Shown in pieces: positions 5,401 to 61,936 of a stretch of 64,000 bases of DNA. The position numbers and the translations under genes were made by a program. Under the pieces are notes generated by a model. It was not told where the DNA came from and searched no databases. It saw only the letters and a list, made by a program, of their open reading frames with translations. The DNA is from a virus, in the UHGV virus genome UHGV-0176771. One strand, written 5' to 3'. Positions within the stretch are counted from its first letter, which is position 1, and each line of letters starts with the position of its first letter.

Positions 5401-5751
5401 AATCTGCCCGTATTCTCCTTGTGCAGAATTTGCAGTTACAGTTTTATATTCTCTTGTACCTATACCATGTGTTTCTGGGCTGTCCATAATGAACCATCCA
5501 AGAGTAGAAATATAAATCTTCATATATTTAGATAACCAGTTATAAGCAGAAGATTCTATCATTCGTCCATCATCTGTTTCTATGTACTGATTCACATCAA
5601 AAGTGATAGAAGAAACATCGTTGCACACCCCTTCAAAATTCACTGTTGAAATATCTATTCCGTTAATTGCACAAAGAAAAATTCTACTTGGAGTTGCAAG
5701 GTACGCGACTGGCTGTTCATGTCTTCCATATAAATCATAATTCAGTTGCAA
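2449..5751 (-). CDS. Tail-associated protein Tal (prophage tail endopeptidase-like N-terminal region, Gly-rich segments), 1100 aa
   Basis: 1100-aa ORF immediately downstream of the Dit-like gene. Size, position and glycine-rich stretches are typical of siphovirus Tal/minor structural proteins. Confidence 0.55.
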   Translation of the reverse strand: MQLNYDLYGRHEQPVAYLATPSRIFLCAINGIDISTVNFEGVCNDVSSITFDVNQYIETDDGRMIESSAYNWLSKYMKIYISTLGWFIMDSPETHGIGTREYKTVTANSAQGEYGQIPLDGWKVNCGTTDSLEMLVEGNVEEVDGVEFAKEQIKFYNELTPQLSLVNILIEKVPGWKIGHIDNIPKEYETIENGEIKKKLVYLKDEIGTFDVDYKDTYTFLTQDFEKFFNCIVEFDFKNLVVNFYRVENFGKETNITIGYRNVQNSADVSVDDEHIYTKYRVSGANDLGIEQVNGGNNNLFYLDRFWLNNKYLSDSTIKKYKAWFDFCVQARIDYTKMSKEWNELQDKITEIYIRIPTGDCDPSNWHKLSDEALTALKKEYEAQKLGYEKIYVDEDGKFDIDALNASPDANIYHQIVDTILPNIQIEFDNRKLPTSEGEMDFIEDYETTWEYYGINELEVKLTAYQDQVKLLQKSHYDLTWERYQELSKEDPEKYPPLTEDGFKGKHEIYEKNAYQLDEKNADSCAAALKKRREEAKVEEEKQKELGKKRTALGQDMALETWADNELGGFTKEELAELYHITNPTTYTNENIFISTQDSLRDIVTVQQELCRIALEELEASSVPQVIYSTDTDNLISASGTELHARTLDFGNFIWLGIRDDYFVKLRVMNISYNPFLFDNNFTITFSNMIKSRSKRNDFISILGTGSNLGGGGARNNYVGNLQITDDNIYEILQKLLQSSAFTNKVQNIVNGSGGSIIGGGGGDYITPGTLEAEMIKCINIHAENGFFQYLQAELISAGQIVAQSGDFKKLAAYVANIDNLISGNVSAELGHIIKLTAQNVVIDEAVISELIAARITVDMLKASKISTDQFQIGSDDGGISIVENTMQFKDKNNVVRIQIGRDNNDNFTFCLYDETGKGVLIDSTGIKDSAIEDGLIKNDMIANNTIAKDKLAFQAVEQDADGKIHVSDVVVNGEGINASFTTIEKQFSNMQTQIDGIKVSTPYTMSIYSSNGVVFRPGMINTTLSPTLYLGQSNVTDMYDETHFIWTRQSPDSDGDHYWNMAHANGTKGLHITNEDVFGGASFTCSFFNEDKELARAVF

Positions 5752-6825
5752 TTAGATCAGTGCTCCTTTCCTTGGCTCCAAGTAAGAAATATTTAAAGTT
5801 ACATTTCCAAACACTCTAAAAGTGTTATGTCCATGAATCAACCGCACCCAGTAAATATTGTCTTCCGCTTGAATACCAACACGTTCAAATACTACTGGTC
5901 TATCAAGTTCATCATAGAATGCTAAATTTTTACAATCCAATTTCAATTCCAAGTCACGCTGAGTCTGGCAGTAGAAAAATCCGCCCTGAAAAATATAATA
6001 CTGCCCGTTTTCAATATAGTACGCGCCATACTTATTCTTCACTCCGTAAGAATCAGTAAGATAGAATAGGATAGCAGTATTATTGCATACAGATACCACA
6101 TGACTATCTTTGTCATATACATATTCAAGAGTACACCCATTCATTTTTGCGTAATTTTCAATTTTATTCATCAATAATTGTAACGTCAATTTGTTTGTGG
6201 ATTGTAATGAGATTGTGCCAGATTCAAGTGTTTTACTGTCTGACAGATTATGGATATAGATTTGTTCTGTTGCTTTGGGATAAATATTAATAACTGGATA
6301 TACATATCCGTATTTGTCGCTGCTTGTATTTTGCAACATAAAGTTTTTACTACGTGTAATGATTTGTTGATCTTGTTTTTCTACATAAGAAAATGGCGAA
6401 TTGCATGTGAATGTACATCGTAAACCGTAACAAATTCCCCAATTCTCATATGGAGTGACAGAAGAGAAGTAGCCTTTTACTTTTACAATCTCGTCCTGTT
6501 GTGTTGTAATTTTTAACCATCTATGTTCTTGAGGTGATGTGAGCCATGAAACTGTCTCCTCGTATTCTTCTGTAGATAATTCTAATTCTTCCTGAGATGT
6601 ATTTACCTCGTAATCTTTTGTGATGTGTATTTCAAATACAAGTGTTTCTGTATATGTTGTTCCGAATCCAGTCACCTCTGGTCGATATTTATTCATTGTA
6701 GTAGATTCCATTTCTCTCACAATAGACGATGGAAGAGAAGTATCGTCATCAAAATTAACAGAAGAAAGATTCTGTTGCTTCAATGTTTGCTCATCAAATT
6801 CAAAATCTTTACATACTAGAATCAT
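5752..6825 (-). CDS. Distal tail protein (Dit)-like, 357 aa
   Basis: Lies between the tape measure gene and Tal. Its start abuts the Tal gene (5751/5752). Confidence 0.45.
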   Translation of the reverse strand: MILVCKDFEFDEQTLKQQNLSSVNFDDDTSLPSSIVREMESTTMNKYRPEVTGFGTTYTETLVFEIHITKDYEVNTSQEELELSTEEYEETVSWLTSPQEHRWLKITTQQDEIVKVKGYFSSVTPYENWGICYGLRCTFTCNSPFSYVEKQDQQIITRSKNFMLQNTSSDKYGYVYPVINIYPKATEQIYIHNLSDSKTLESGTISLQSTNKLTLQLLMNKIENYAKMNGCTLEYVYDKDSHVVSVCNNTAILFYLTDSYGVKNKYGAYYIENGQYYIFQGGFFYCQTQRDLELKLDCKNLAFYDELDRPVVFERVGIQAEDNIYWVRLIHGHNTFRVFGNVTLNISYLEPRKGALI

Positions 6826-7182: not shown

Positions 7183-7947
7183 CCATGAGTAAAGCGGTTA
7201 TTCTTGCTAATTGTTTAGTTTATTAGCCTTAATTCCACTAAAGGCTCAACCGTCTATAGGATTCTGGTCTCTTTTATTTTGCACACATCAATGTGCATTC
7301 ATTCAACCTATAGATAAAACCGCATTAACGGCTTCTTACTTTCTTTTATACTCACCTATTATAGCTTATTTTACTCGAAAAGTAAATATAAAACAAATAT
7401 AATTGCAATGTTTCTTTGTTGCACATCGCAAAGCATATTTTAAATAACAAACAATGTTTAATGGCACATTGCGAAACCAAATATAATTTGAACCCCAGCC
7501 TTTTATTAGCCACATACTGGGTAGCGGAAATAATTTAACCCCGTACCTTCTTTTTGACTGCTGATATATACGGTCACAGCAAATAATAGAATAGAAGAGT
7601 CACTGGTGATGACCTTTCTATTCATTTAAGGACTTTCTTTCAGAACATAGTTCCTAGTTAGGCTATGGGAAATCCTCGCACCTTTGTAAATCTCCATGTA
7701 AACCGGTTCCTAACCCGGCGTACACTTCAAAGATTATTTATAGCAGTCATATTACGCTGCATCACACCAGATTTTACTTAATTAGACAGCGTCCTGATAA
7801 AGCAGGCTATTCTATGGTAGTTTATCGTCCCCCAATAGAGAAAGTGAGCCGTCTCTTTCACTTTTACTTTTGGATATCCAAGGCATCTCTCCTATATTCA
7901 TATTCTCTTAATCACAAGCGGCAGGATAATAAATCCCACCGCTTATT

Positions 7948-10900
7948 TTAAAATGATCTGTGTACACCAGCTCTTTTGGCTTCTTTGGTAAATTCCTTTG
8001 TGACTCCTTCAATTACTTTCTTCATGCCAGGATAGGTTTCCTTGTCAATACTTCCTTGAACTTCTATCATCTTGTCATAGTAATTATTTGTTACATTAGG
8101 TCTTTCACCAAGGCTGTTTGCAATGTTCAGTGAACTATAAATATCATCTTTGTGTTCACCAAGATCCATAATGTTCTTTGACAGTCTTGCATTTACAACA
8201 GCATCACCATAAGTAATTGTCGTAGCTGTTCCTGTCAATGCACCACGCCTAACCATCATTTCAGGATTGTTTCCTTCATTGATACGAACAATTTCTGAAC
8301 CATTTACAAATTTCTTTGTTCCAGACGCATAACCTCTTAACTGGTCAAGACTTACCCAACCAAGGTCACGCTCTCCGAAACGAGGTGTTCTACTAATATG
8401 ATATTTCTTCTGTGCCCAATTAGCATTATTAACACTGGTAATATATACTTCCTGACCACGCATTTCATTTCCAGCAGGGGACTGACCGTCAGAAGAGTAG
8501 TAGTAATCTCCACTTGCGAATATTACTTTGTCTCCAACATTTGGTACTCCGTCTCCGCCACCATTATTACTCGGTGGTGGTGTAGTTGGTTTTGGTGGTT
8601 CTGGTTTTGGTGTGACAGTTACTGCACAACTATTTGTTGAAGTAGCTCCTCCACCATCTGTTGCAATTGCACTAATGGTAGTGCTACCTGCTTTGACAGC
8701 ATGAACAGTTCCATTTGCAACTGTAGCAACATTTGGATTTGATGACACCCACTGCAAGCTTTTATTTTTTGCATCATTTGGTCTGATTGTTGCCGAAACT
8801 GTGCCTGTAGAACCTTCCTGTATAGAAAGTGTCCCCGGACTTAATGTAATTTCTGCAACTGGTCTGTTTGATAAGTCTGGATTCTTACTGATATCACCTT
8901 GAATCTGGTCATTCTTATCCTGTGTTGTTCCGTTCTGAATCTGACCGGTATTCACATCCGTCCAATCATCCGGTCTATAATTAGGAGCATTAGTCATACT
9001 ATTGTCAACTTGATCTTGTGCTCCATTACTTGTACCAAGATTTCCAAGATTATTGGATAAATCTTTATTCGGTACAAATCCTGTACTGTTAATGATTTGC
9101 TGAATTTTGTCATAAGCCTGTTGGTAGTTTCCAACAATATTTCCAAGCATTTGAGATATTACTTGTTCCTGCTTTTCAGCATTTCGAGTAACATCATATA
9201 ATGTTTCCTCCAGCTGCTTATCGAGATCCTCACTCAAACCGTCCAGACCATTCTGGTGAACATCATATTCATGGTCATCACGGGTGTCTTGCATTTCTTC
9301 TTCGGCATCTCTAAGTTGTGCTTTTAACCTCTTTAATTCAGCCTGTGCACTCGCATTATTCGTGCCTTCGAGTGCAGCAATCTGAGCTTTCAATGTATTC
9401 ACATCTCTAGCCTGTTTACGCAGAGTCTTATTGTAATCAGCATTTTTCTTTTTGATATCCAATAATTCCTTCTGCTTATCAATCGATTTTTGAGCAACTT
9501 CATTCTCTTGCTCAAGCATCTTTGTATACAGATCAACAATAGAATCTTTGTAGTCTTCTACAATATTAACAGAGCTTGAAATCTGATTGAGAAATTCTTT
9601 TTGCTGCTCCTTATATTCACTTGTTGAGATATTCCCGTTCTTTAAATCCTCATCAAGCTTCTTCAATGCCTCTTGATAATTCTTAATCTGTTGTTTCGCA
9701 GCATTCATACCCTGACTAATCAAAGCCAAATTTGCAATACCATCAAGTGTTAATCCACCATTTTTCCCAACAAAAGCATCACTATTTAAAAGTCCTCTTA
9801 AATCATCTGTCTGGTCAATCAGATCACCTAATGCCTCCTGTCCATCAAAGAACGGTTGCCATCTTACTTCCCAGATTTTATTTTTGAGGTCTTCAATATT
9901 ATTCATTGCATCAAAGATAGCGTCATCGAGCTTTTCCATCTCTTCCGCATATTCATTATATTTGTCAGAACCGACATCATATTTTGCCTGATCTCGTAAT
10001 AGCTCTTGTCTCTTATTATAATTCGCTTGAATCTGTGCATTGGCATTATCAAGTTGCGCCTGTAAATCTTTTTCAGATATTTGTTCGCCTTTTGACTCTG
10101 TAAGGTCTGTGTTGTTCTCAAGACGTTTTGCAGTTCTGTCTAATTCATCGATTGCCTGTTGCAATTTCAATAAATCAAGTTCTCTTAGTTGGTCTTGCAA
10201 TTCGATCAATGTTGTTTCAGCTTCAGCAGCTTCTTGTCTGAATCCGTTTAATGCAGCTTGAGCTTCAAACCATTCCGTTGAGTATTCAGCCATATACCCA
10301 TTTGCCATGAGTTTATTGATTTCATCTTGATATGATTTAATCTGTGACTGTAATTTACCTGCAACATCCTGTTGATTTTTAATAGATTCTTGCAGAGAGC
10401 CATACATATTGTCGGAATATGCAGATTCTCCTTTTGCAGCCGCTAGTTCACGTAATGCTTCCTGATAATCTACAGCAGAGGACTCAATTCCAGTCATCAT
10501 ATCGATGTAATCTTCAATATTATCCAATGCTGTCTGCGCCAGTTCACTCTGTTTGTTTAAGAGGTCATCGTACTGTTTATTACAGTCTACGAGCTTATCA
10601 TAATAAGACTGTAGCTCACTGATTATTTTTTGAGTATCATCATCGTATTTTGAAATATCCATAGACCCGTTCTGAATCTGATGGACGATAAGTGGGTTTA
10701 TTCCACTCTGTCGCACAATAGAATCAAAATGACTTTGATAAGTCCCAATTGCTTGCTGAGTCCTATTCAGTAGTTCACTGTTCTTAGACATTGCCTCATA
10801 CAGTTTCTGTTGCTTATCTGGGAGGTGTGCGATACGCTCCATTTGACTCATCAATAAATCATACTGTGATTCTAGCCGTTGAAATAACACCTCAACCCAG

Positions 10901-39994: not shown

Positions 39995-40471
39995 TTAATC
40001 TCTTAAATCGATTTCTGTCAATTCCACATAGTCATCTTCGTGTGTGATTCGTAGATAATCACTTCCTTGAATTAATTTTCCATCATGCTTTTTTACAATA
40101 TCTCTCATATAGTCAAATGGATGAATATGTGGAACTACCTTTTTATAATCTAAAAAAGTAATATCATAGTTATCATCCATATGTATATATACACATTTAA
40201 TTGTGGGTATGATCGAATATTTATTTTGAAAATTTTCTATATCACACAGAAAATTTGTATTCCGTTCATCTAAGATTTTTGACTCCAAATCATGAACGTC
40301 AATTGCAATCATTTTCACATATCCTGTTTTAACTAGTCTTTCCATAGCTATGCATACCTCCGGTGCTGTGATTTTCAGAAACAGTATAACATAGAATGAA
40401 AGAGTAGTGAGCTGGTAAATTATGGAATTAGAGTTAAACAAATGCATCATCAGCATCATCAGAATCTTCAC
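39995..40471 (-). CDS. Hypothetical protein (start likely internal, MERLVKTGY...)
   Basis: ORF; overlaps the integrase 5' end by 38 nt as annotated. Confidence 0.35.
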   Translation of the reverse strand: MKILMMLMMHLFNSNSIIYQLTTLSFYVILFLKITAPEVCIAMERLVKTGYVKMIAIDVHDLESKILDERNTNFLCDIENFQNKYSIIPTIKCVYIHMDDNYDITFLDYKKVVPHIHPFDYMRDIVKKHDGKLIQGSDYLRITHEDDYVELTEIDLRD

Positions 40472-41552
40472 GAATTACATATATTTGGGTAGTTTCGCTT
40501 GATTCATGCCCCAATAATTTCTGAGCTGTTTCAAGTGGGCGATGATTATACACAACTAAATTAGTTGCCCTACTTCTTCGGAGTCCGTGTGGAGTAAGCC
40601 TCTGTCCAACAATTTCTGAAAATTCATTAATGCACCAATCATTGAACACACCTTCACTTACTTGTCTTGTTTCACCATTTTTTTGTTTAATTACAAACAT
40701 ATAAGGACAATCGTCTTCTCCACGAACTTCAATCCATTTTTTTAAAGCAACCATCACATCTTCGCCAAACTGAAGCTTTCTGATTTTCCCAGCTTTACTT
40801 CGTCCTTTACATCTAATATCATGAGTTTTATATGAGACAGATTCTACTTCTTGCTCTACTCCATTTTCATCGATTATTTTTACCATTTTTCTTTTTGGCT
40901 CATAATTGATTACCTCTTTTAGCAACTGCCTAGATTCCGCGCGGCGGCAGCCTGTGGAATATGTATATTTTACGTAAGCTAATTTTTGCCACTCCTCACG
41001 TTTTTCTAATTCATTACATAGATAATCAATTTGCTCAGGAGTCAAAGGCTCTTTTGAAAATACTTTTCCTGTTTTTGGAACCTGCATTTCCGCAGTTACA
41101 AAATTACGAAAAGTTGGATATTCATCCTCATAAAAATTTTCGATAAATTTATTCATAGCACTAACAGCAGATTTTTTAAATTTAATTCCGGATTCAGAAA
41201 AGCCTCTATTTGCAAGCCAATTCATATATCTAAGAAACTCTTTCTTTTTAATATCTATGCACTTTTTATCTCGTAAATTATTTTTCACCCAAAGAAAAAA
41301 TATTCTTAAGGCTGATTTGTACGCATTTATGCTTTTAGGTGAAAGATGTGTTTGATTGTTAAGATAATCATCAACCATTTCCCTGTTAAATTCATTTACT
41401 GTTAACCAAATTTCATCTGTAATATCTTCTGATCTATTTGCTATCTTTTCATTCAAAACATCACTTCCTTTTTGAAAAACTATATTTTGGAGTTTCTTAC
41501 GATTTTCGTCAGGAGATTCCTGCTTTACAAATCCATAACCTACTATCTCCAT
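40434..41552 (-). CDS. int: Tyrosine recombinase / phage integrase
   Basis: C-terminal catalytic region RLTPHGLRRSRATNLV...LLGHESSETTQIYV (R..H-R-Y pattern). 372 aa. Confidence 0.8.
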   Translation of the reverse strand: MEIVGYGFVKQESPDENRKKLQNIVFQKGSDVLNEKIANRSEDITDEIWLTVNEFNREMVDDYLNNQTHLSPKSINAYKSALRIFFLWVKNNLRDKKCIDIKKKEFLRYMNWLANRGFSESGIKFKKSAVSAMNKFIENFYEDEYPTFRNFVTAEMQVPKTGKVFSKEPLTPEQIDYLCNELEKREEWQKLAYVKYTYSTGCRRAESRQLLKEVINYEPKRKMVKIIDENGVEQEVESVSYKTHDIRCKGRSKAGKIRKLQFGEDVMVALKKWIEVRGEDDCPYMFVIKQKNGETRQVSEGVFNDWCINEFSEIVGQRLTPHGLRRSRATNLVVYNHRPLETAQKLLGHESSETTQIYVIREDSDDADDAFV

Positions 41553-44566: not shown

Positions 44567-44845
44567 TTAAGCATTTACTTTATCTTTTAATTCTTTTCCT
44601 GCTTTAAATTTTACATTTTTAGATGGCTCAATGTAAATTTCGCTTCCGTCCTGTGGATTTCGTCCAGTTCTTCCAGCTCTTTCTCTTACTTCAAAACTTC
44701 CAAATCCGACGAACTGTACTTTATCTCCAGCAGTAAGTGCATCTGCAATTGAATCAAGAGTTACAGCAACAATCTCTTTTGCTTTTTCCTGTGTTACTCC
44801 GTCTACTTTTTCTGCAATTGTTTTAATTAAATCTGATCTTGTCAT
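44567..44845 (-). CDS. hup: HU/IHF-family DNA-binding protein
   Basis: 92 aa, MTRSDLIKTIAEK...GFGSFEVRERAGRTGRNPQDGSEIYIEPSKNVKFKAGKELK. Confidence 0.85.
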   Translation of the reverse strand: MTRSDLIKTIAEKVDGVTQEKAKEIVAVTLDSIADALTAGDKVQFVGFGSFEVRERAGRTGRNPQDGSEIYIEPSKNVKFKAGKELKDKVNA

Positions 44846-48311: not shown

Positions 48312-48384
48312 TGCAGAGCCTGGGAGTCGAACCCAGTATTTTCAGATTATGGATCTGATGTGATAATCCGTTTCACTCGCCTGC
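48312..48384 (-). tRNA. Degenerate tRNA-like element (CAU-type anticodon loop with C33, bulged acceptor stem), possible tRNA pseudogene
   Basis: Perfect T-arm CTGGG-TTCGACT-CCCAG. Anticodon arm TCAGA-TCCATAA-TCTGA. D-arm GTGA/TCAC with GG loop. Acceptor pairs only with a 1-nt bulge. Confidence 0.35.
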
Positions 48385-49365: not shown

Positions 49366-49388
49366 AAAGAAAAACGGGCATGATGCCC
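49366..49388 (-). terminator. Rho-independent terminator for the minus-strand operon ending at 49432
   Basis: GGGCA-TCA-TGCCC hairpin followed by a U-run (plus-strand aaagaaaaac). Confidence 0.5.
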
Positions 49389-49393
49389 AGAAA

Positions 49394-49423
49394 CCCCGTG
49401 TTTACAAGGGTTTCAAGGGTTTT
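49394..49423. repeat. Copy A (degenerate) of the GTGTTTAyAAGGGTTTaCA motif; contains tandem CAAGGGTTT
   Basis: CCCCGTGTTTACAAGGGTTTCAAGGGTTTT. Compare the identical 23-mers at 58082 and 58182. Confidence 0.5.
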
Positions 49424-49431
49424 CTGAATCG

Positions 49432-50193
49432 TTACATGTTGTTTTCTCTATACTTTTTCACTCTAATTCTTGTTTTTTCTTTTGTAATTTCTTTTTGACA
49501 CTCATTACAATAGTTCATATTGTTGCTATTCTTTTTGAATAATTTCCCGCATAGTTTACACCTTTCAAATTTTCCTTCCCCAACAAAATTTAAATACTCA
49601 TATCCTAATTCACGAAAATCGGTTATTTTTAAAGCAGTTTCACCAGTTTTATTAACAAAATTTACTTTTAGATTCAGGTTGTCATTTTTATTTGAAAAAG
49701 AGATTAGTCCCAATTGTTCCAAATCGTTCAAATATAAAAATTTATCATTCCTATGTTTTACATGTACTCTAGAAATTTTATATATTTCTTTTATATCCGT
49801 ATTAATCCATCCATTATTTGTTTCAGATAATGTGTTGTATAATTTCGCGAAACATAACATTACAAATAAAAGCTTTCTATATTTCGTAGTGTTAACTCTT
49901 GAAATTGTGTCTAATTCAGATTGAAATATTTCAATACATTCTATTTCTCTCAATGGATATTTGTGTGCTTTATTTACAGTATTTTCAATAACATCTTCCC
50001 ATAAAGCAGCATTATAATTTTTATAATGTTTGCCCATAAAATCATTTAATTTACAAATAGTGTCTTGTTTATTTAAATTTACTTTTTGTCTATAATACCT
50101 AGATAATAGAAATAGGGTAGAAGTTGGCTTGTTGCCAACCTCCCCTTCAGAAATAAGTCTTTCTGCTTCTTTTGTCTCATTTAGTACAACCAT
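49432..50193 (-). CDS. Hypothetical protein with C-terminal Zn-ribbon (253 aa)
   Basis: CKLCGK...CNECQK. 13-nt overlap with the upstream RNAP-like gene. Confidence 0.45.
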   Translation of the reverse strand: MVVLNETKEAERLISEGEVGNKPTSTLFLLSRYYRQKVNLNKQDTICKLNDFMGKHYKNYNAALWEDVIENTVNKAHKYPLREIECIEIFQSELDTISRVNTTKYRKLLFVMLCFAKLYNTLSETNNGWINTDIKEIYKISRVHVKHRNDKFLYLNDLEQLGLISFSNKNDNLNLKVNFVNKTGETALKITDFRELGYEYLNFVGEGKFERCKLCGKLFKKNSNNMNYCNECQKEITKEKTRIRVKKYRENNM

Positions 50194-52955
50194 TCATCGT
50201 CCTCCTCGTCTTTAATACCCATATCAAATTTAATTTCTGTTGTTTCTAGTGAAAACTTTTTCCCTGCAAAATCAATATCGCCATTTATATCTTGCGTTGG
50301 ATAAGTAACCTTGTAATTATTCCTTTTAAGAAGATTTGAGATAATCATATCTCCACATATATCCCATGCAAATTGCTTGCTAGATTTACTTTTTGAATAA
50401 CATAGATCTAAAACAATATCGCATAAATATTCTTCATTGGGGCACTGTTCTAAGCACCGCCGTTTAAAATCTTCTTTTAATGTATATTTTTGAATCTGTC
50501 TTTCGTCTGATTTTATTCTTTCAGATTTTGCAAACTGCATATAGTTTGAAAGTTCTTTTTTATAACTTTCATAAATCTTTTTAATTTTATTAAACAACTG
50601 CTTAGAATAGACAACATTGCATTTCATAATAGAGTAGTCAAAATCAGAATCATTGACGTATCTTAAATCAGAAAATTTGTTTTCAATAGCCCAACATATT
50701 TTGTTAATAGTACAAGGAGACATTCCTAAAGGCATTCTTTTGTAATAACATTGTATAAATTTCTCCTCATCAAGTGTCAAAGTTTCTTTTTCTAAAAGCT
50801 CATCAAGTGTGATTCTAAACTTCATAATACATTTTTCATTATTACGCTTAATATACTCTAACATCTTTGTTTTTTCTGCAGGATAAATGTATTGCATAAA
50901 ATACGGTTTTTTATCTGCAACAAGTTTTCTATTCATCCAGTATTTTTTCTTCTCAGAAGAACTCTTTCCGTTTGAAATTTTATTTGCAATCCAATTATAC
51001 CACTCACTCGGCATAGGTTTTGACTCAATGCCCTTGGTTTTGTCGATCGAGTTCTGCTGGTATAATTGTCCACATTTAATGCGGTAATCTAGGATTCTAT
51101 ATTCACGACTATCTTTTGGGAAATTTGCTTGAACTTCAAACATGGATGTAATTTTATTTGTAACGGCACCAACTGCATTTCCAAAACTATTGATGTTAGA
51201 CTTCATGATATCGTCTTCTGTGGGAATACATTTTGGTGCTTTCCGCTGTACACATACCACCGCTGGTAATTCTTGTGTTTTTTTAACAAGCAGCGGGAGA
51301 GAAGTATTGATTACACAGTCGCCATCCTTATCGAAGCCGTTCATAGCATCTGCACATGTATCCCAACTATTGAATATTGTTGGCGTTGTCATATATTTAT
51401 AGAACTCGTCCATCTTTTCGTTATGAACCACATTTAGTTTTCTAATATTATTATGAGAGGTCATTGGCGCTCTAAAACTTACAATTTTATCAACCCCTTT
51501 ATCAATCCAATATTTAGAATAAATTTCTCCGGATTTTAATAACCCTGTTACCTTTAAACCAAACATTGATTGACATAATGAATACGGATCACCAGACACT
51601 AAAGAATAATTTGCAGGAACATTTAAAACACCAACCTTGGCATCGTCAATTCTTTTTTTGATCATAGAATAAATTTGTGATTTGACAAATGGATCATTTT
51701 TCATTTCTGGTTCAATCATTAAAGCTGTAGAAAATGAATTATCTAAATTCTGAATGGTATTACTATTCAAACCAACACCTTTTGTATACAAAATTGTTTT
51801 TCTGTAATCATCCGATAGAATATCTTGAATTTCCGTAACAGTTGGCTCAATAAGTTCTTCAATTTCACCATCACTAAAATCATAACTTTGAAGAAATTGA
51901 TAATTCATCGTTCTAATATTTTCTAATTCTTTCTCAGAAGTTTTTGTAATAGCAAAACTATAATGATTTTTTTCACAATTGTCTAAGTAGTCTTCAATAG
52001 AAGAGTAGGAGTCCCATAATTTTAACATTGATTCTGTTAATACAAGTTCTATATCACTTACATTATAAGAATTACCCCAAACATCTGTGATAGTTTCTAT
52101 GTTGTGATCATAAGCAAACTTTTGAAAATCAATTGGGAAAATCGCTCCTTTACAAAATGAATTTCTTATTACACATCCTGGTAATAAAAAATCTTCGCCA
52201 ATTTCTTCGCCCCATCTTTTCATAAGTTCCGGCATAGCTAATCCATATCCGTCGCTGTCGTTTAATTCCATTTCTTTATCTTTTATATATTTCATACTTG
52301 GTTCTTCAAGATCTGTATCGTCTAATTCAATTATATCGGATTTAAAATGTGTAATACAATCATGCACAACAACGATTCCATTTGGATATGAGACAGGGGC
52401 AGAAGAACTACAGACTAAAGCATTATATGCTTCTAATTTGGCTGGAGAAAATTCTTTTGACATATTTCTTCCATTATCAATTCTTCTTTTTAATTCTGGT
52501 AATAATTTTTCGTTTACAAAAACAATTGTATTATTTTTAACTCCACCAGTAGTTCCAAGTAATCGTCTGTATGTAATTTTATTTATTTTAAAACCGTGTT
52601 TGTACATTTTGTAATAGTCTTTATTATTATCTATAACAACACATACATAATCTTTTTTAAATTGATAAGCATCTAATTCTTCATACAGTTTTTTAATTTT
52701 TGGTCTTGATACAGATAAATTCTTTTCATATTTCAAATTTTTAATTTTAGATTTTATATCTGAAATATGTAATTCAGGATTTGTTATTCCATTCAATTCA
52801 TCTATAAATCTCATCATTTGACTTTCGCTTAATGCAATTAATTCCTTGTTTTCTCGTGCTTGTTTTATTGATAGCTGCAAATCCCATTTTGCTCTTCTAA
52901 GACGAGAAGAATGTATTTTAAAAACGTATCTTTGTGATGCTAAATGTTTACTCAA
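50181..52955 (-). CDS. YonO-like single-subunit RNA polymerase candidate, homologous to the multisubunit RNAP beta-prime double-psi beta-barrel (924 aa)
   Basis: IVSFRAPMTSHNNIRKLNV...NGFDKDGDCVINTSLP mirrors the beta-prime catalytic region VLLNRAPTLHRLGIQAF...NADFDGDQMAVHVP (RAPxxH plus the DxDGD aspartate triad). Confidence 0.55.
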   Translation of the reverse strand: MSKHLASQRYVFKIHSSRLRRAKWDLQLSIKQARENKELIALSESQMMRFIDELNGITNPELHISDIKSKIKNLKYEKNLSVSRPKIKKLYEELDAYQFKKDYVCVVIDNNKDYYKMYKHGFKINKITYRRLLGTTGGVKNNTIVFVNEKLLPELKRRIDNGRNMSKEFSPAKLEAYNALVCSSSAPVSYPNGIVVVHDCITHFKSDIIELDDTDLEEPSMKYIKDKEMELNDSDGYGLAMPELMKRWGEEIGEDFLLPGCVIRNSFCKGAIFPIDFQKFAYDHNIETITDVWGNSYNVSDIELVLTESMLKLWDSYSSIEDYLDNCEKNHYSFAITKTSEKELENIRTMNYQFLQSYDFSDGEIEELIEPTVTEIQDILSDDYRKTILYTKGVGLNSNTIQNLDNSFSTALMIEPEMKNDPFVKSQIYSMIKKRIDDAKVGVLNVPANYSLVSGDPYSLCQSMFGLKVTGLLKSGEIYSKYWIDKGVDKIVSFRAPMTSHNNIRKLNVVHNEKMDEFYKYMTTPTIFNSWDTCADAMNGFDKDGDCVINTSLPLLVKKTQELPAVVCVQRKAPKCIPTEDDIMKSNINSFGNAVGAVTNKITSMFEVQANFPKDSREYRILDYRIKCGQLYQQNSIDKTKGIESKPMPSEWYNWIANKISNGKSSSEKKKYWMNRKLVADKKPYFMQYIYPAEKTKMLEYIKRNNEKCIMKFRITLDELLEKETLTLDEEKFIQCYYKRMPLGMSPCTINKICWAIENKFSDLRYVNDSDFDYSIMKCNVVYSKQLFNKIKKIYESYKKELSNYMQFAKSERIKSDERQIQKYTLKEDFKRRCLEQCPNEEYLCDIVLDLCYSKSKSSKQFAWDICGDMIISNLLKRNNYKVTYPTQDINGDIDFAGKKFSLETTEIKFDMGIKDEEDDEWLY

Positions 52956-53059: not shown

Positions 53060-54320
53060 TTTACAAGGTGAACTACCAACGAGCTAAAGCTCGATTGGTT
53101 TCCTAGTCAATATATCTAATGATACAAGTTTACCTAGGCTATCCTCGTAGTTCCTACGATTTTATTTTCGTTATATATTCTCAAACCTTCATTGAGAATA
53201 TTTATTGCTGCATTTATATCTCTTTCATGATGTGTTCCACAAACAGGGCAGGTCCATTCTCTGACTGATAATGTTTTCTTTCCATCTTTGTGTCCACAAT
53301 TAGAACAGATCTGACTGGATGGAAACCATGTGTTAATCTTAACAATTTCTCGCCCATACCAATCGGCCTTGTATTCTAATTGTCTTACAAATTCACTCCA
53401 TGATACATCAGCAATTGATTTTGCTAATTTATGATTACTCATCATATTTTTTACTTTAAGACTTTCTAAAGCTATGACTTGATTTTCGTTAATAATTTTC
53501 TTAGACAACTTATGTAAAAAATCTTTTCTTTGATTTGTAATCTTTTCATGCTGTTTTGCGACTTTAATTCTGCATTTTTCTCTGTTCTTACTTCCTTGCT
53601 TACAACGTGATAAATCCTTTTGTAACTTTCTTAACCTTTTTTCAGATTTTCTAAGATATTTTTGGTTTTGAATCATTTCACCAGCAGAAGTAATAGCAAA
53701 TTCTTTGATTCCAAGATCAATACCAATTTTATTATTAGATTGTGGTAATTTTTCTTGCTCTTTACAATTCACTAAAACTGAAACATAATATTTACCACTT
53801 GGAGTTTTAGAAACCGTAACAGATTTAATAACCCCTTCAAAATCTCTATGTCTCTTCACTTTGACTAATCCAATCTTAGGAAGTTTGATATATCTATCAG
53901 TTACATAAATATTTCCACCTTGATTATTAGTAGTATAAGAGTAATAATTATTCTTTTTACTTTTGAATTTAGGGGAACCCACTTCCGGTCTTTTGAAGAA
54001 ATTATTATATGCAGTTTGTAAATTCATCTGTGCATTTGCTAAAGCAAGAGAATCTACATCTTTTAACCAAGGAAATTCTTTTTTATACTGAGCAGGTGTA
54101 TTATTAAGTTTCTGTTTTGTTTCTTTATAATGCTCAATCTTATCTGAAAGCATACGATTATAGATGAACCGTACACATCCAAAACATTTTGCAAAATATT
54201 CTTGTTGTTCTTTATTAGGATATAATCTATACTTATACGCTTTTAACATCTATAATCACTTCCTTTTAGTTATATATTCTCCGTTATTCATCCCGTCAGC
54301 TAAAGCTAATAGGATTTATG
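53060..54320 (-). mobile_element. IS200/IS605-family element, TnpB-only (IS1341-like), with subterminal hairpins
   Basis: tnpB ORF plus imperfect palindromes CGAGCTAAAGCTCG (53080-53093) and AGCTAAAGCT (54298-54307) near either end. No tnpA seen. Confidence 0.5.
53134..54249 (-). CDS. tnpB: TnpB (IS605 OrfB family, RuvC-like RNA-guided nuclease)
   Basis: [16 protein letters not shown]-terminus. C-terminal CSNCGH...[18 protein letters not shown] zinc-finger/RuvC-III block. Confidence 0.85.
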
Positions 54321-58081: not shown

Positions 58082-58104
58082 CCCAGTGTTTATAAGGGTT
58101 TACA
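58082..58104. repeat. Copy B of the 23-bp motif CCCAGTGTTTATAAGGGTTTACA
   Basis: Identical to the copy at 58182-58204, exactly 100 bp away. Confidence 0.6.
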
Positions 58105-58126
58105 GAGTTTTCGCATCATTCCATTT

Positions 58127-58181: not shown

Positions 58182-58204
58182 CCCAGTGTTTATAAGGGTT
58201 TACA
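58182..58204. repeat. Copy C of the 23-bp motif CCCAGTGTTTATAAGGGTTTACA
   Basis: Identical to copy B. Confidence 0.6.
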
Positions 58205-58721
58205 AGGATTTTAGTTGAAAAAAATTATCTCTTTTATCCATAAAATAGTACGCAAAGGGGGTCTGGGGGAAATGCAAAAAAGATCATAATTCATTTAGTC
58301 GCACTAGCTGGTTGTGAGCCTTGGCGAACAAGCTGCGTAGTAAGACTTATGAATTTGGTCTTCTTTCCCCCAGTTAATAATTCTCTCTTTATAAATAATT
58401 TTTATATAAATTTGTAATTACTTATATATAGAGAGATCTAGGTAATATTGGATCCACTTCAGAAAGAGCCGCAAGCGACCCTTTCTTCGTGTCTCCGTTT
58501 CACTTTGCTTCGCAAAGTCTTTGCTGACGCAAAGATACAATTTAAATTGAAATAGAAAAAAATTTTTTATAATTTCTTCATATCGTTTCTCTTTTTATTA
58601 AAAATATTTTAACGGCTTCTTTATTTCATACATTTATTCTCTTATCAATATAAAAATATCTGTGAAAACTTACACTGTTGTGTTATTATATAAATATCAA
58701 AAGAAGTAGGAGAGTAGCGCT

Positions 58722-60406: not shown

Positions 60407-61936
60407 ATGGAAGGAGTTATTGTCGTGAATAGGACATATATTGCAATTGATTTGAAAAGCTTTTATGCATCAGTAGAGTGTATAGAACGTGGACTTGATC
60501 CACTGACAACAAATCTAGTTGTTGCTGATAATAGCAGAACAGATAAAACAATTTGTCTTGCAGTAACTCCGTCTTTAAAATCATATGGTGTATCCGGAAG
60601 ACCAAGATTATTTGAAGTAGTACAACGTGTAAGAGAAATCAATGCTACAAGATTGTATAACTTAAGAAAACGTGAATTCTCTGGTTTCTCCTATAATAAG
60701 AAAGAATTGGATGATAATTTAAATCTAAAACTTGATTATATTGTAGCTCCTCCTAGAATGTCGTTTTACATGGAATACAGTACCAGAATCTATAATATTT
60801 ATTTAAAATATATTGCTCCAGAAGATATCCATGTATATTCTATTGATGAAGTGTTTATAGATGTAACTTCTTATTTAAATACGTATGGGTTATCTGCAAA
60901 AGAATTGGTACAGAAAATTATACTGGATGTGCTGCATGAAACGGGAATTACAGCAACCGCAGGTATTGGAACGAATTTGTATTTGGCTAAGATTGCTATG
61001 GATGTTGTAGCAAAGCATATTCCTGCTGATGAACACGGTGTAAGAATTGCAGAACTGGACGAAATATCTTACAGAAAACAATTGTGGGATCATAGACCGT
61101 TGACTGATTTTTGGCGTATTGGAAGAGGATATACAAAAAAGTTGGAATCTGTTGGGTTATATACAATGGGAGATATTGCAAGATGTTCTCTTGGAAAAGA
61201 GGAGGATTATTATAATGAGGACTTGCTGCGTAGAATGTTTGGCAAGAATACAGAACTTTTGATTGATCATGCTTGGGGATGGGAGCCTGTTACGATTGCA
61301 GATATTAAAGCATATAAGCCGGAGAGTAATAGTATTGGAAGTGGACAGGTTTTACACTGTGGAACTGATTTTGATAAAACGAAAATTATTGTGCGTGAAA
61401 TGACCGAGATATTGGTCTTAGATTTGGTTAGTAAAAATCTTGTAACGGATCAGATTGTATTAACGATTGGCTACGATAGAGAAAATCTATTAGATTCTTC
61501 CAGAATGAGTAAGTATAAGGGAGAGTTCTCTTTTGATCAATATGGGAGAAAAATTCCAAAACATGCTCATGGAACAGCAAATTTAGATAGTTATACGTCT
61601 TCTACTAGCGTGATTGTAAGAGCTGTGCTTGATTTGTTCAGTAGAATTGTAGACGAAAATTTACTTGTCAGAAGAATCAATATGTCTGCAAATCATGTGA
61701 TCAGCGAAAAGGAAGCGAAACAGGATAGATATGAACAGCTTAATTTATTTGATATGATTGCTGAAAAGGAAGATGCAGTAGACCAGGAACAACTTAAAAA
61801 AGAAAAAGATATTCAGAAAGCTATCTTGGATATCAAGAAAAAATTTGGGAAAAATGCAATTTTAAAAGGCATGAGTCTACAAGAAGGAGCTACTGCAATA
61901 GATAGGAATAATCAAATTGGTGGACATAAAGCATAG
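60407..61936 (+). CDS. Y-family (UmuC/DinB-like) translesion DNA polymerase
   Basis: IAIDLKSFYASVE and SIDEVFIDVT catalytic motifs. 509 aa. Confidence 0.85.
   Translation: MEGVIVVNRTYIAIDLKSFYASVECIERGLDPLTTNLVVADNSRTDKTICLAVTPSLKSYGVSGRPRLFEVVQRVREINATRLYNLRKREFSGFSYNKKELDDNLNLKLDYIVAPPRMSFYMEYSTRIYNIYLKYIAPEDIHVYSIDEVFIDVTSYLNTYGLSAKELVQKIILDVLHETGITATAGIGTNLYLAKIAMDVVAKHIPADEHGVRIAELDEISYRKQLWDHRPLTDFWRIGRGYTKKLESVGLYTMGDIARCSLGKEEDYYNEDLLRRMFGKNTELLIDHAWGWEPVTIADIKAYKPESNSIGSGQVLHCGTDFDKTKIIVREMTEILVLDLVSKNLVTDQIVLTIGYDRENLLDSSRMSKYKGEFSFDQYGRKIPKHAHGTANLDSYTSSTSVIVRAVLDLFSRIVDENLLVRRINMSANHVISEKEAKQDRYEQLNLFDMIAEKEDAVDQEQLKKEKDIQKAILDIKKKFGKNAILKGMSLQEGATAIDRNNQIGGHKA

Follow-up and report, generated by a model that had tools for sequence, protein, structure and literature searches.

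A gene on the minus strand of the virus genome UHGV-0176771, at 50181..52955 of the 64,000-nucleotide (nt) stretch analyzed here (hereafter the window), encodes a 924-amino-acid (aa) protein that, as judged from its sequence, is a homologue of YonO, the RNA polymerase (RNAP) of phage SPβ. Taken as a whole, the data are best explained by a YonO-type two-barrel RNAP that likely serves late transcription and whose zinc ribbon resides on a separate partner protein, a reading in which we place high confidence. Among the known relatives of cellular RNAPs, YonO-type enzymes are the simplest, and their biochemistry has been established on SPβ YonO alone. The window contributes a well-preserved member from a large gut-Clostridium phage lineage to a family that comprises some 1900 sequence clusters. 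This family of enzymes was known before, and the window protein adds one more member to it: YonO-like proteins of Firmicutes phages have been recognized since 2003–2010 (PMC2919709), and a study of SPβ relatives describes YonO as a hallmark of the SPβ phage type. Current understanding is not overturned by the findings on the window polymerase.

Homology, catalytic residues and fold of the polymerase

The open reading frame (ORF) starts with a TTG codon preceded by a GGAGG ribosome-binding site (RBS) 10 nt upstream. Its closest 120 database homologues (75–95% identical) are nearly all 920–926 aa long, and the aligned close homologues begin identically at the N-terminus. Because lengths and N-termini agree, the gene model is considered sound, and a first-pass annotation of this DNA had placed it exactly (50181..52955, 924 aa).

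BLASTP aligns residues 121–606 of the polymerase with residues 133–603 of SPβ YonO (E = 7e-31, 27% identity), pairing FRAPMT with LRSPHL, and a second, weak and collinear match to YonO near the C-terminus covers polymerase residues 822–875. A translated search (tblastn) of annotated phage genomes retrieved SPβ yonO (E = 4e-22) together with homologues in Clostridium phage c-st (42% identity), Enterocloster phages (38–39%) and the Spbetavirus BUCT082 (30%). Two bacteria, Clostridium sp. Marseille-P7770 and MCC344, have homologues of 75–76% identity. The c-st protein BAE47877.1, which Iyer and colleagues include among the YonO-like enzymes (PMC7824862), is the closest annotated relative and is matched over 96% of the length. 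An exhaustive search put the family at 1865 clusters (50% identity) for a cut-off of E ≤ 1e-3, and at 548 for E ≤ 1e-30. Some members of the SPβ clade carry the NCBI name “DNA-directed RNA polymerase YonO”, and among the PHROGs the polymerase strongly matches three families of unknown function. Neither a T7-like nor a Pol I-type RNAP was matched in the Pfam, PHROG, PDB sequence or fold searches, nor was any other unrelated family, in line with the first-pass annotation, which had seen no resemblance to T7-like enzymes. The NCBIfam search with the polymerase gave no match; phmmer against PDB sequences was empty, and a small profile of 7 sequences matched nothing in the PDB. Searched against 177,635 PDB sequences, a 97-sequence profile retrieved only RDR2 (E = 7e-5) and QDE-1 (E = 3.5e-4), and its alignment to RDR2 places sDGqG...iRnaFiKG on SDGIG...IRYGGYKG and GaDfDGD on GGDLDGD.

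The catalytic motifs of both barrels lie within the single 924-aa ORF. The β′-like motif (FRAPMT...FDKDGD, codons R495 to D546; 51318..51473, minus strand) comprises the R-x-P element and the Asp triad predicted to bind Mg, and is identified from the YonO alignment, from conservation and from the RDR2 profile alignment. It belongs to the stretch quoted in the first-pass annotation, which corresponds to residues 491–554, with FRAPMT at 494 and DKDGD at 542–546. Across an alignment of 97 family members, 21–60% identical to the window polymerase, R495, P497, D542, D544 and D546 are each kept in 97/97 sequences; RAPMT pairs with YonO RSPHL and FDKDGD with FDNDGD, and the motif noted in the first-pass annotation is real. 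The β-like barrel motif, for which that annotation had advised a search, is present as SDGYG...VIRNSFCKG (codons D235 to K269; 52149..52253, minus strand) and supplies, besides two basic residues, the fourth catalytic Asp. D235 and K269 are kept in every one of the 97 homologues and R264 in 95 of them, and the assignment draws further on the RDR2 profile alignment and on the QDE-1 spacings. On sequence grounds, none of the eight catalytic-centre residues of two-barrel RNAPs is missing from the window polymerase.

The first-pass annotation had also described the spacing of the multisubunit β′ active site as reproduced. This match is loose, as R495 and D542 are 47 residues apart and the corresponding distance in bacterial β′ is about 35 residues (E. 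coli β′ R425/D460). The value comes near the 45 residues of QDE-1 (R962 to D1007), in which the equivalent positions are D709, R738, K743, R962, P964 and D1007/1009/1011 (PMC2919709); R962/P964 correspond to R446/P448 in the R-x-P of Rpb1. The β-like motif has the same D-29-R-5-K spacing as QDE-1 D709/R738/K743. QDE-1 and RDR2 thus resemble the window polymerase in this spacing, in an R-x-P about 45 residues before DxDGD and in the presence of two barrels in one chain, and YonO-like and QDE-1/RDR2-type enzymes have in common the absence of any SBHM (sandwich-barrel hybrid motif) flap insert (PMC7824862). QDE-1 and RDR2, cellular enzymes of eukaryotes, differ in their accessory domains and are only 11–15% identical to the window polymerase; both copy RNA for gene silencing, and QDE-1 also copies single-stranded DNA. 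The same two-barrel active-site design, in which one barrel bears the Asp triad and the second one the basic residues, is found in the β/β′ subunits of multisubunit RNAPs and in the virion RNAP of the crAss-like phage φ14:2 (6VR4). The likeness to SPβ YonO comprises a homologous catalytic core, the eight catalytic-centre residues and both barrels in one chain, whereas the proteins differ in length (839 aa in SPβ) and their N-terminal ~120 residues are unrelated.

An AlphaFold2 model of the polymerase was built from a 33-sequence alignment and compared with the PDB using Foldseek. All 21 significant matches were RDR2 or QDE-1 (E from 3e-10 to 2e-5; best structural matches PDB 2J7N, 7Y7P and 7W84), and no other fold appeared below E = 0.1. 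The first-pass annotation had called for a structure prediction, and the model folds like RDR2/QDE-1; at the level of the overall predicted fold, the fold class is confirmed. The proposed likeness to β′ needs a qualification: the nearest solved relatives are single-chain enzymes of the RNA-dependent RNA polymerase (RdRP) type, and multisubunit β′ chains gave short local matches only. Direct YonO homology, the eight catalytic residues and the agreement of fold and profile with RDR2/QDE-1 together uphold the YonO-type candidate.

A zinc ribbon on a separate protein

The C-terminus of YonO carries a zinc ribbon, C-x2-C-x7-SN-x4-C-x2-C, and after it a basic helix. No such ribbon is present in the window polymerase, and a motif of identical spacing ends the downstream ORF, which encodes a 253-aa protein (phrog_30716; 49432..50193, minus strand) and has a GAGGAGG 7 nt upstream. 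The ATG of this partner gene lies within the last codons of the polymerase gene, giving a 13-nt overlap. The partner ribbon (C212 to C232; 49498..49560, minus strand) matches YonO residues 796–819 in BLASTP (E = 9e-6), and its cysteines and SN are invariant in the partners of five phages. When the partner was compared with the tail of the YonO clade by hhalign, only residues 209–253 matched (probability 88.5%, E = 2.8e-6, 46 columns).

A fused ribbon was found in 101 of 104 YonO-clade proteins, in 0 of 120 window-clade proteins and in 1 of 111 diverse representatives, the latter being the full-length relatives listed in the representative search, so that 110 of these 111 are without it. The one exception, a metagenomic protein of 1173 aa (P0460), consists of a polymerase body fused to the whole partner, its residues 920–1169 aligning with partner residues 3–234 (E = 6e-11). 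Moreover, the partner gene lies directly 3′ of the polymerase gene in 13/13 examined places outside the YonO clade, with overlaps of 1–16 nt; these are the window and 12 loci (c-st, PMBT24, CB457P2, BUCT082 and L006–L013). Ribbon distribution, natural fusion and gene linkage together tie the partner to the polymerase. Judging from these genomic patterns, the enzyme probably works together with the 253-aa protein, which would be a subunit or cofactor and possibly binds DNA or the promoter. The description of the enzyme as stand-alone, taken over in the first-pass annotation from YonO, is therefore doubtful and should not be assumed, the ribbon tail of YonO being found here on a separate, translationally coupled protein.

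The arrangement has a close parallel at the CST179/178/177 locus of phage c-st, where polymerase, zinc-ribbon partner and HU follow in the same order with a UvrD-like helicase upstream. The c-st depositors labelled CST179 as the N-terminal YonO homologue and CST177 as “YonO-homolog (C-ter only)”. Apart from this label, no paper discussing the split-ribbon arrangement was found, and we regard the architecture as a modest new variant feature. The two-protein reading could extend to most of the YonO family, the window clade comprising almost every diverse full-length relative that the representative search listed: the 253-aa partner would be an obligatory, translationally coupled subunit, for example a DNA- or promoter-recognition module, and SPβ YonO would represent a derived state in which only the ribbon survives, fused as a tail. 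We advance this extension tentatively and consider it somewhat doubtful; if true, most of the YonO family would not be truly single-subunit. The separation of catalytic body and ribbon module in the window clade makes the contribution of the ribbon and its 205-residue companion testable. Candidate contributions are promoter recognition, DNA binding and initiation, and both the YonO promoter and the need for extra factors were left open by Forrest et al. (PMC5467207).

Polymerase residues 890–924 (window 50181-50285, minus strand; GDIDFAGKKFSLETTEIKF...) share alignment columns with the YonO zinc ribbon and contain no cysteine. In the AlphaFold2 model the C-terminal ~35 residues form a small β-hairpin. 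This cysteine-free terminus could represent a ribbon that has degenerated, or the shared columns could be an artefact of the alignment.

Genomic setting and proposed function

The polymerase gene is part of a minus-strand unit that begins with a UvrD-type helicase and TnpB, proceeds through polymerase, partner, ROOL RNA, tRNAs and PIN-PhoH, and continues with an exonuclease, HU (44567-44845, minus strand), an integrase-like gene, the large terminase, head genes and tail genes. The block of terminase, head and tail genes lies downstream of the polymerase gene and has the same orientation. This order parallels yonO-yonN(HU)-yonK of SPβ, likewise a large temperate Firmicutes phage with yonO upstream of the HU gene and the late structural genes, and the counterparts of the window exonuclease in close relatives carry Pfam YonJ domains. 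Of the SPβ-like features listed in the first-pass annotation, HU and a Y-family polymerase (60407-61936, in the divergent arm) are present; a CwlP/YomI-like tape measure found no support, as the 2306-aa ORF matches Big_2 only and a search for lytic domains in it returned none.

Forrest et al. (2017, PMC5467207) found SPβ YonO to be an RNAP that is processive and strictly DNA-dependent. As the 3D>3N mutant shows, catalysis requires the Asp triad of YonO, and 37 late (structural and lysis) genes are silent without YonO (PMC5467207). By homology with this enzyme, the window polymerase most likely copies DNA into RNA and transcribes the downstream late genes (terminase, head, tail) without the host polymerase. 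D542, D544 and D546 would hold two catalytic Mg ions together with D235, and R264, K269 and R495 would contact the incoming nucleoside triphosphate and the RNA 3′ end. Enzymatic activity, a preference for DNA templates, a late-gene role and the role of the partner are what we infer for the window. By analogy with SPβ it is reasonable to expect late-gene transcription that is independent of sigma factors.

Alternatively, a two-barrel polymerase could serve something other than late transcription, such as priming, replication or repair, or the synthesis of one RNA such as the adjacent ROOL. Its neighbours indeed belong to DNA metabolism (UvrD helicase, PIN-PhoH, YonJ-like exonuclease, HU and, in L012, a CoiA-like nuclease), and ROOL RNA and tRNAs are found directly downstream in the four closest genomes. 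The full-length ROOL RNA of the window (RF03087; 48745..49348, minus strand; 325 bits, E = 4e-74) lies 84 nt after the partner stop codon, upstream of the tRNAs, and the three closest relatives (L011–L013) have it at the same position with 331–341 bits. However, the SPβ neighbourhood is broadly alike, with yonJ and the HU-like yonN near yonO, and YonO is nevertheless needed for the late-gene mRNAs (PMC5467207). ROOL was not found beside the polymerase genes of L006 and L009 (75–77% relatives), SPβ, BUCT082, PMBT24, c-st and CB457P2, and a terminator-like hairpin stands between the partner gene and ROOL (GGGCATCATGCCC, then a T-run; 49375..49389, minus strand; identified by scan and conserved in L011–L013). 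A non-late role is judged very unlikely. ROOL as a general companion of YonO-type genes was rejected, only the window and its three closest relatives having it; proximity of ROOL to tRNAs in prophages is a documented context (PMC5737381). That ROOL is a dedicated product or cofactor of the polymerase in the closest relatives is a weaker extension of the two-protein reading outlined above.

A second alternative is an RdRP that copies or amplifies RNA and does not transcribe DNA. It is suggested by RDR2 and QDE-1, both RdRPs, as the closest solved structures, by relatives in PMBT24, Perkons and TR-TP1 that are labelled “RNA-dependent RNA polymerase”, and by some family members that match the Pfam RdRP model PF05183. 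Yet these labels follow the Pfam model's name rather than any experiment, and YonO, the only characterized bacterial or phage member, strongly prefers DNA templates (PMC5467207). Moreover, the window phage is a tailed phage with double-stranded DNA in which the structural genes lie downstream of the polymerase gene, and we consider an RNA-copying enzyme very unlikely. A fortuitous likeness of motifs or a decaying, non-functional remnant deserves practically no credence: on its own the window protein is matched by none of the curated family models and the phmmer search of the PDB was empty, but this reading is already refuted by the YonO match, the 1865 family clusters and the invariant catalytic residues, and it is at odds with an intact ORF with its RBS and 120 homologues of essentially equal length.

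Several observations nonetheless weigh against the preferred reading of a DNA-transcribing YonO-family enzyme with a separate ribbon partner. The identity to YonO is low (~27%) and confined to the central ~490 residues of the polymerase. The AlphaFold2 model is of moderate quality (predicted local distance difference test (pLDDT) score 65, predicted template modelling (pTM) score 0.53): confidence is high in the first barrel region (pLDDT 80–92), and the Asp-triad loop, residues 524–551, falls below 50. The nearest solved folds are RNA-dependent enzymes. With the single polymerase sequence every Pfam match stayed below cut-off, and PF05183 was not matched at E ≤ 1; it should be noted that P0460 passes this model with 42.6 bits against a threshold of 23.8, as do other relatives, and the failure of the window protein therefore reflects the sensitivity of the model. 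For the N-terminal ~205 residues of the partner, neither YonO nor Pfam, NCBIfam or the PDB offers a homologue. The single fusion, P0460, is metagenomic, and one wrongly assembled base where the genes overlap could have produced it. Finally, the scan for repeated motifs yielded no candidate promoter for the window polymerase. A fold search with the partner gave nothing significant (best E = 0.26).

Intergenic elements, interruptions in relatives and further observations

The scan of repeated intergenic motifs for a phage-polymerase promoter returned as its sole candidate a 30-nt element, D3 (AAACCCTTrTAAACAC(T)GGG), with three copies read on the minus strand (49394-49423, 58082-58111 and 58182-58211). 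It contains two direct half-sites, CCTTrTAAAC CCTTrTAAAC AC(T)GGG, with a possible AAACCC/GGGTTT hairpin. At the head of the helicase-polymerase operon, a σ70-like promoter (58162-58133) has one copy on either side, a pair also seen in L012; the third copy is found between ROOL and the partner gene. Relatives of 77% identity or less do not have the element, and neither do the other phage loci. It was rejected as the polymerase promoter because it flanks a σ70-like promoter and is missing in these relatives, and is probably an operator.

The polymerase gene is interrupted in some relatives. In c-st (L002) a frame-shifting insert of 317 nt (5672-5988) separates the D544 codon from that of G545, whereas the window gene is uninterrupted. 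On the sense strand the insert shows a group I intron match below threshold, 20.4 bits against a gathering threshold (GA) of 50. In the Enterocloster phage CB457P2 (L004; 2073-3180) the gene is broken at the invariant I637-D638-K641 motif by an insert of ~1.1 kb; the PMBT24 gene is uninterrupted. The 250-aa ORF in this insert has a weak AP2-domain match below cut-off (23.1 bits) and could encode a homing endonuclease. A broad Rfam scan of the split c-st and CB457P2 genes found no known introns, and a focused scan returned only the sub-threshold c-st match. Among the metagenomic cluster representatives at least 11 end at query residue 542–544 and others begin at ~545–557, and since so many end or begin there, interruption at the catalytic triad seems widespread. 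The putative self-splicing-type inserts that recur at the triad in relatives would mark the gene as a homing target.

A TnpB/IS605 OrfB gene (53134-54249, minus strand) immediately precedes the polymerase gene and encodes HTH_OrfB_IS605, OrfB_IS605 and Cas12f-like TNB domains. It has no adjacent TnpA, and L012 and L009 have a CoiA-like nuclease gene at that position. L011 contains further IS605-type copies with Y1 transposases. In c-st, a RAGATH-18 RNA (64.3 bits; 9965-10025) follows immediately after an insertion sequence (IS) transposase OrfB gene near the polymerase locus. About 260 nt upstream of yonK, a DUF3800-VIII RNA motif (RF03075, 47.5 bits) was found in SPβ (L001, 7006-7071) and BUCT082 (L005, 8632-8697); this motif possibly corresponds to the “unannotated non-coding RNA” mentioned by Forrest et al. 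downstream of the YonO-dependent transcription start. A tyrosine-integrase-like ORF (40434-41552, minus strand) lies two genes after HU, in a position similar to that of an integrase-like gene in L009, L012 and L013; the abstract of a preprint describes an integrase-like fold for the SPβ-type repressor (10.1101/2025.11.27.690993). A third tRNA-like gene at 48312-48384 (minus strand) scores 38.9 bits in Rfam and was missed by ARAGORN, and the corresponding position in relatives holds a tRNA with a better score. A drum RNA (RF02958, 64.7 bits) occupies 7625-7735 on the minus strand, just downstream of the 2306-aa tail/tape-measure-like ORF.

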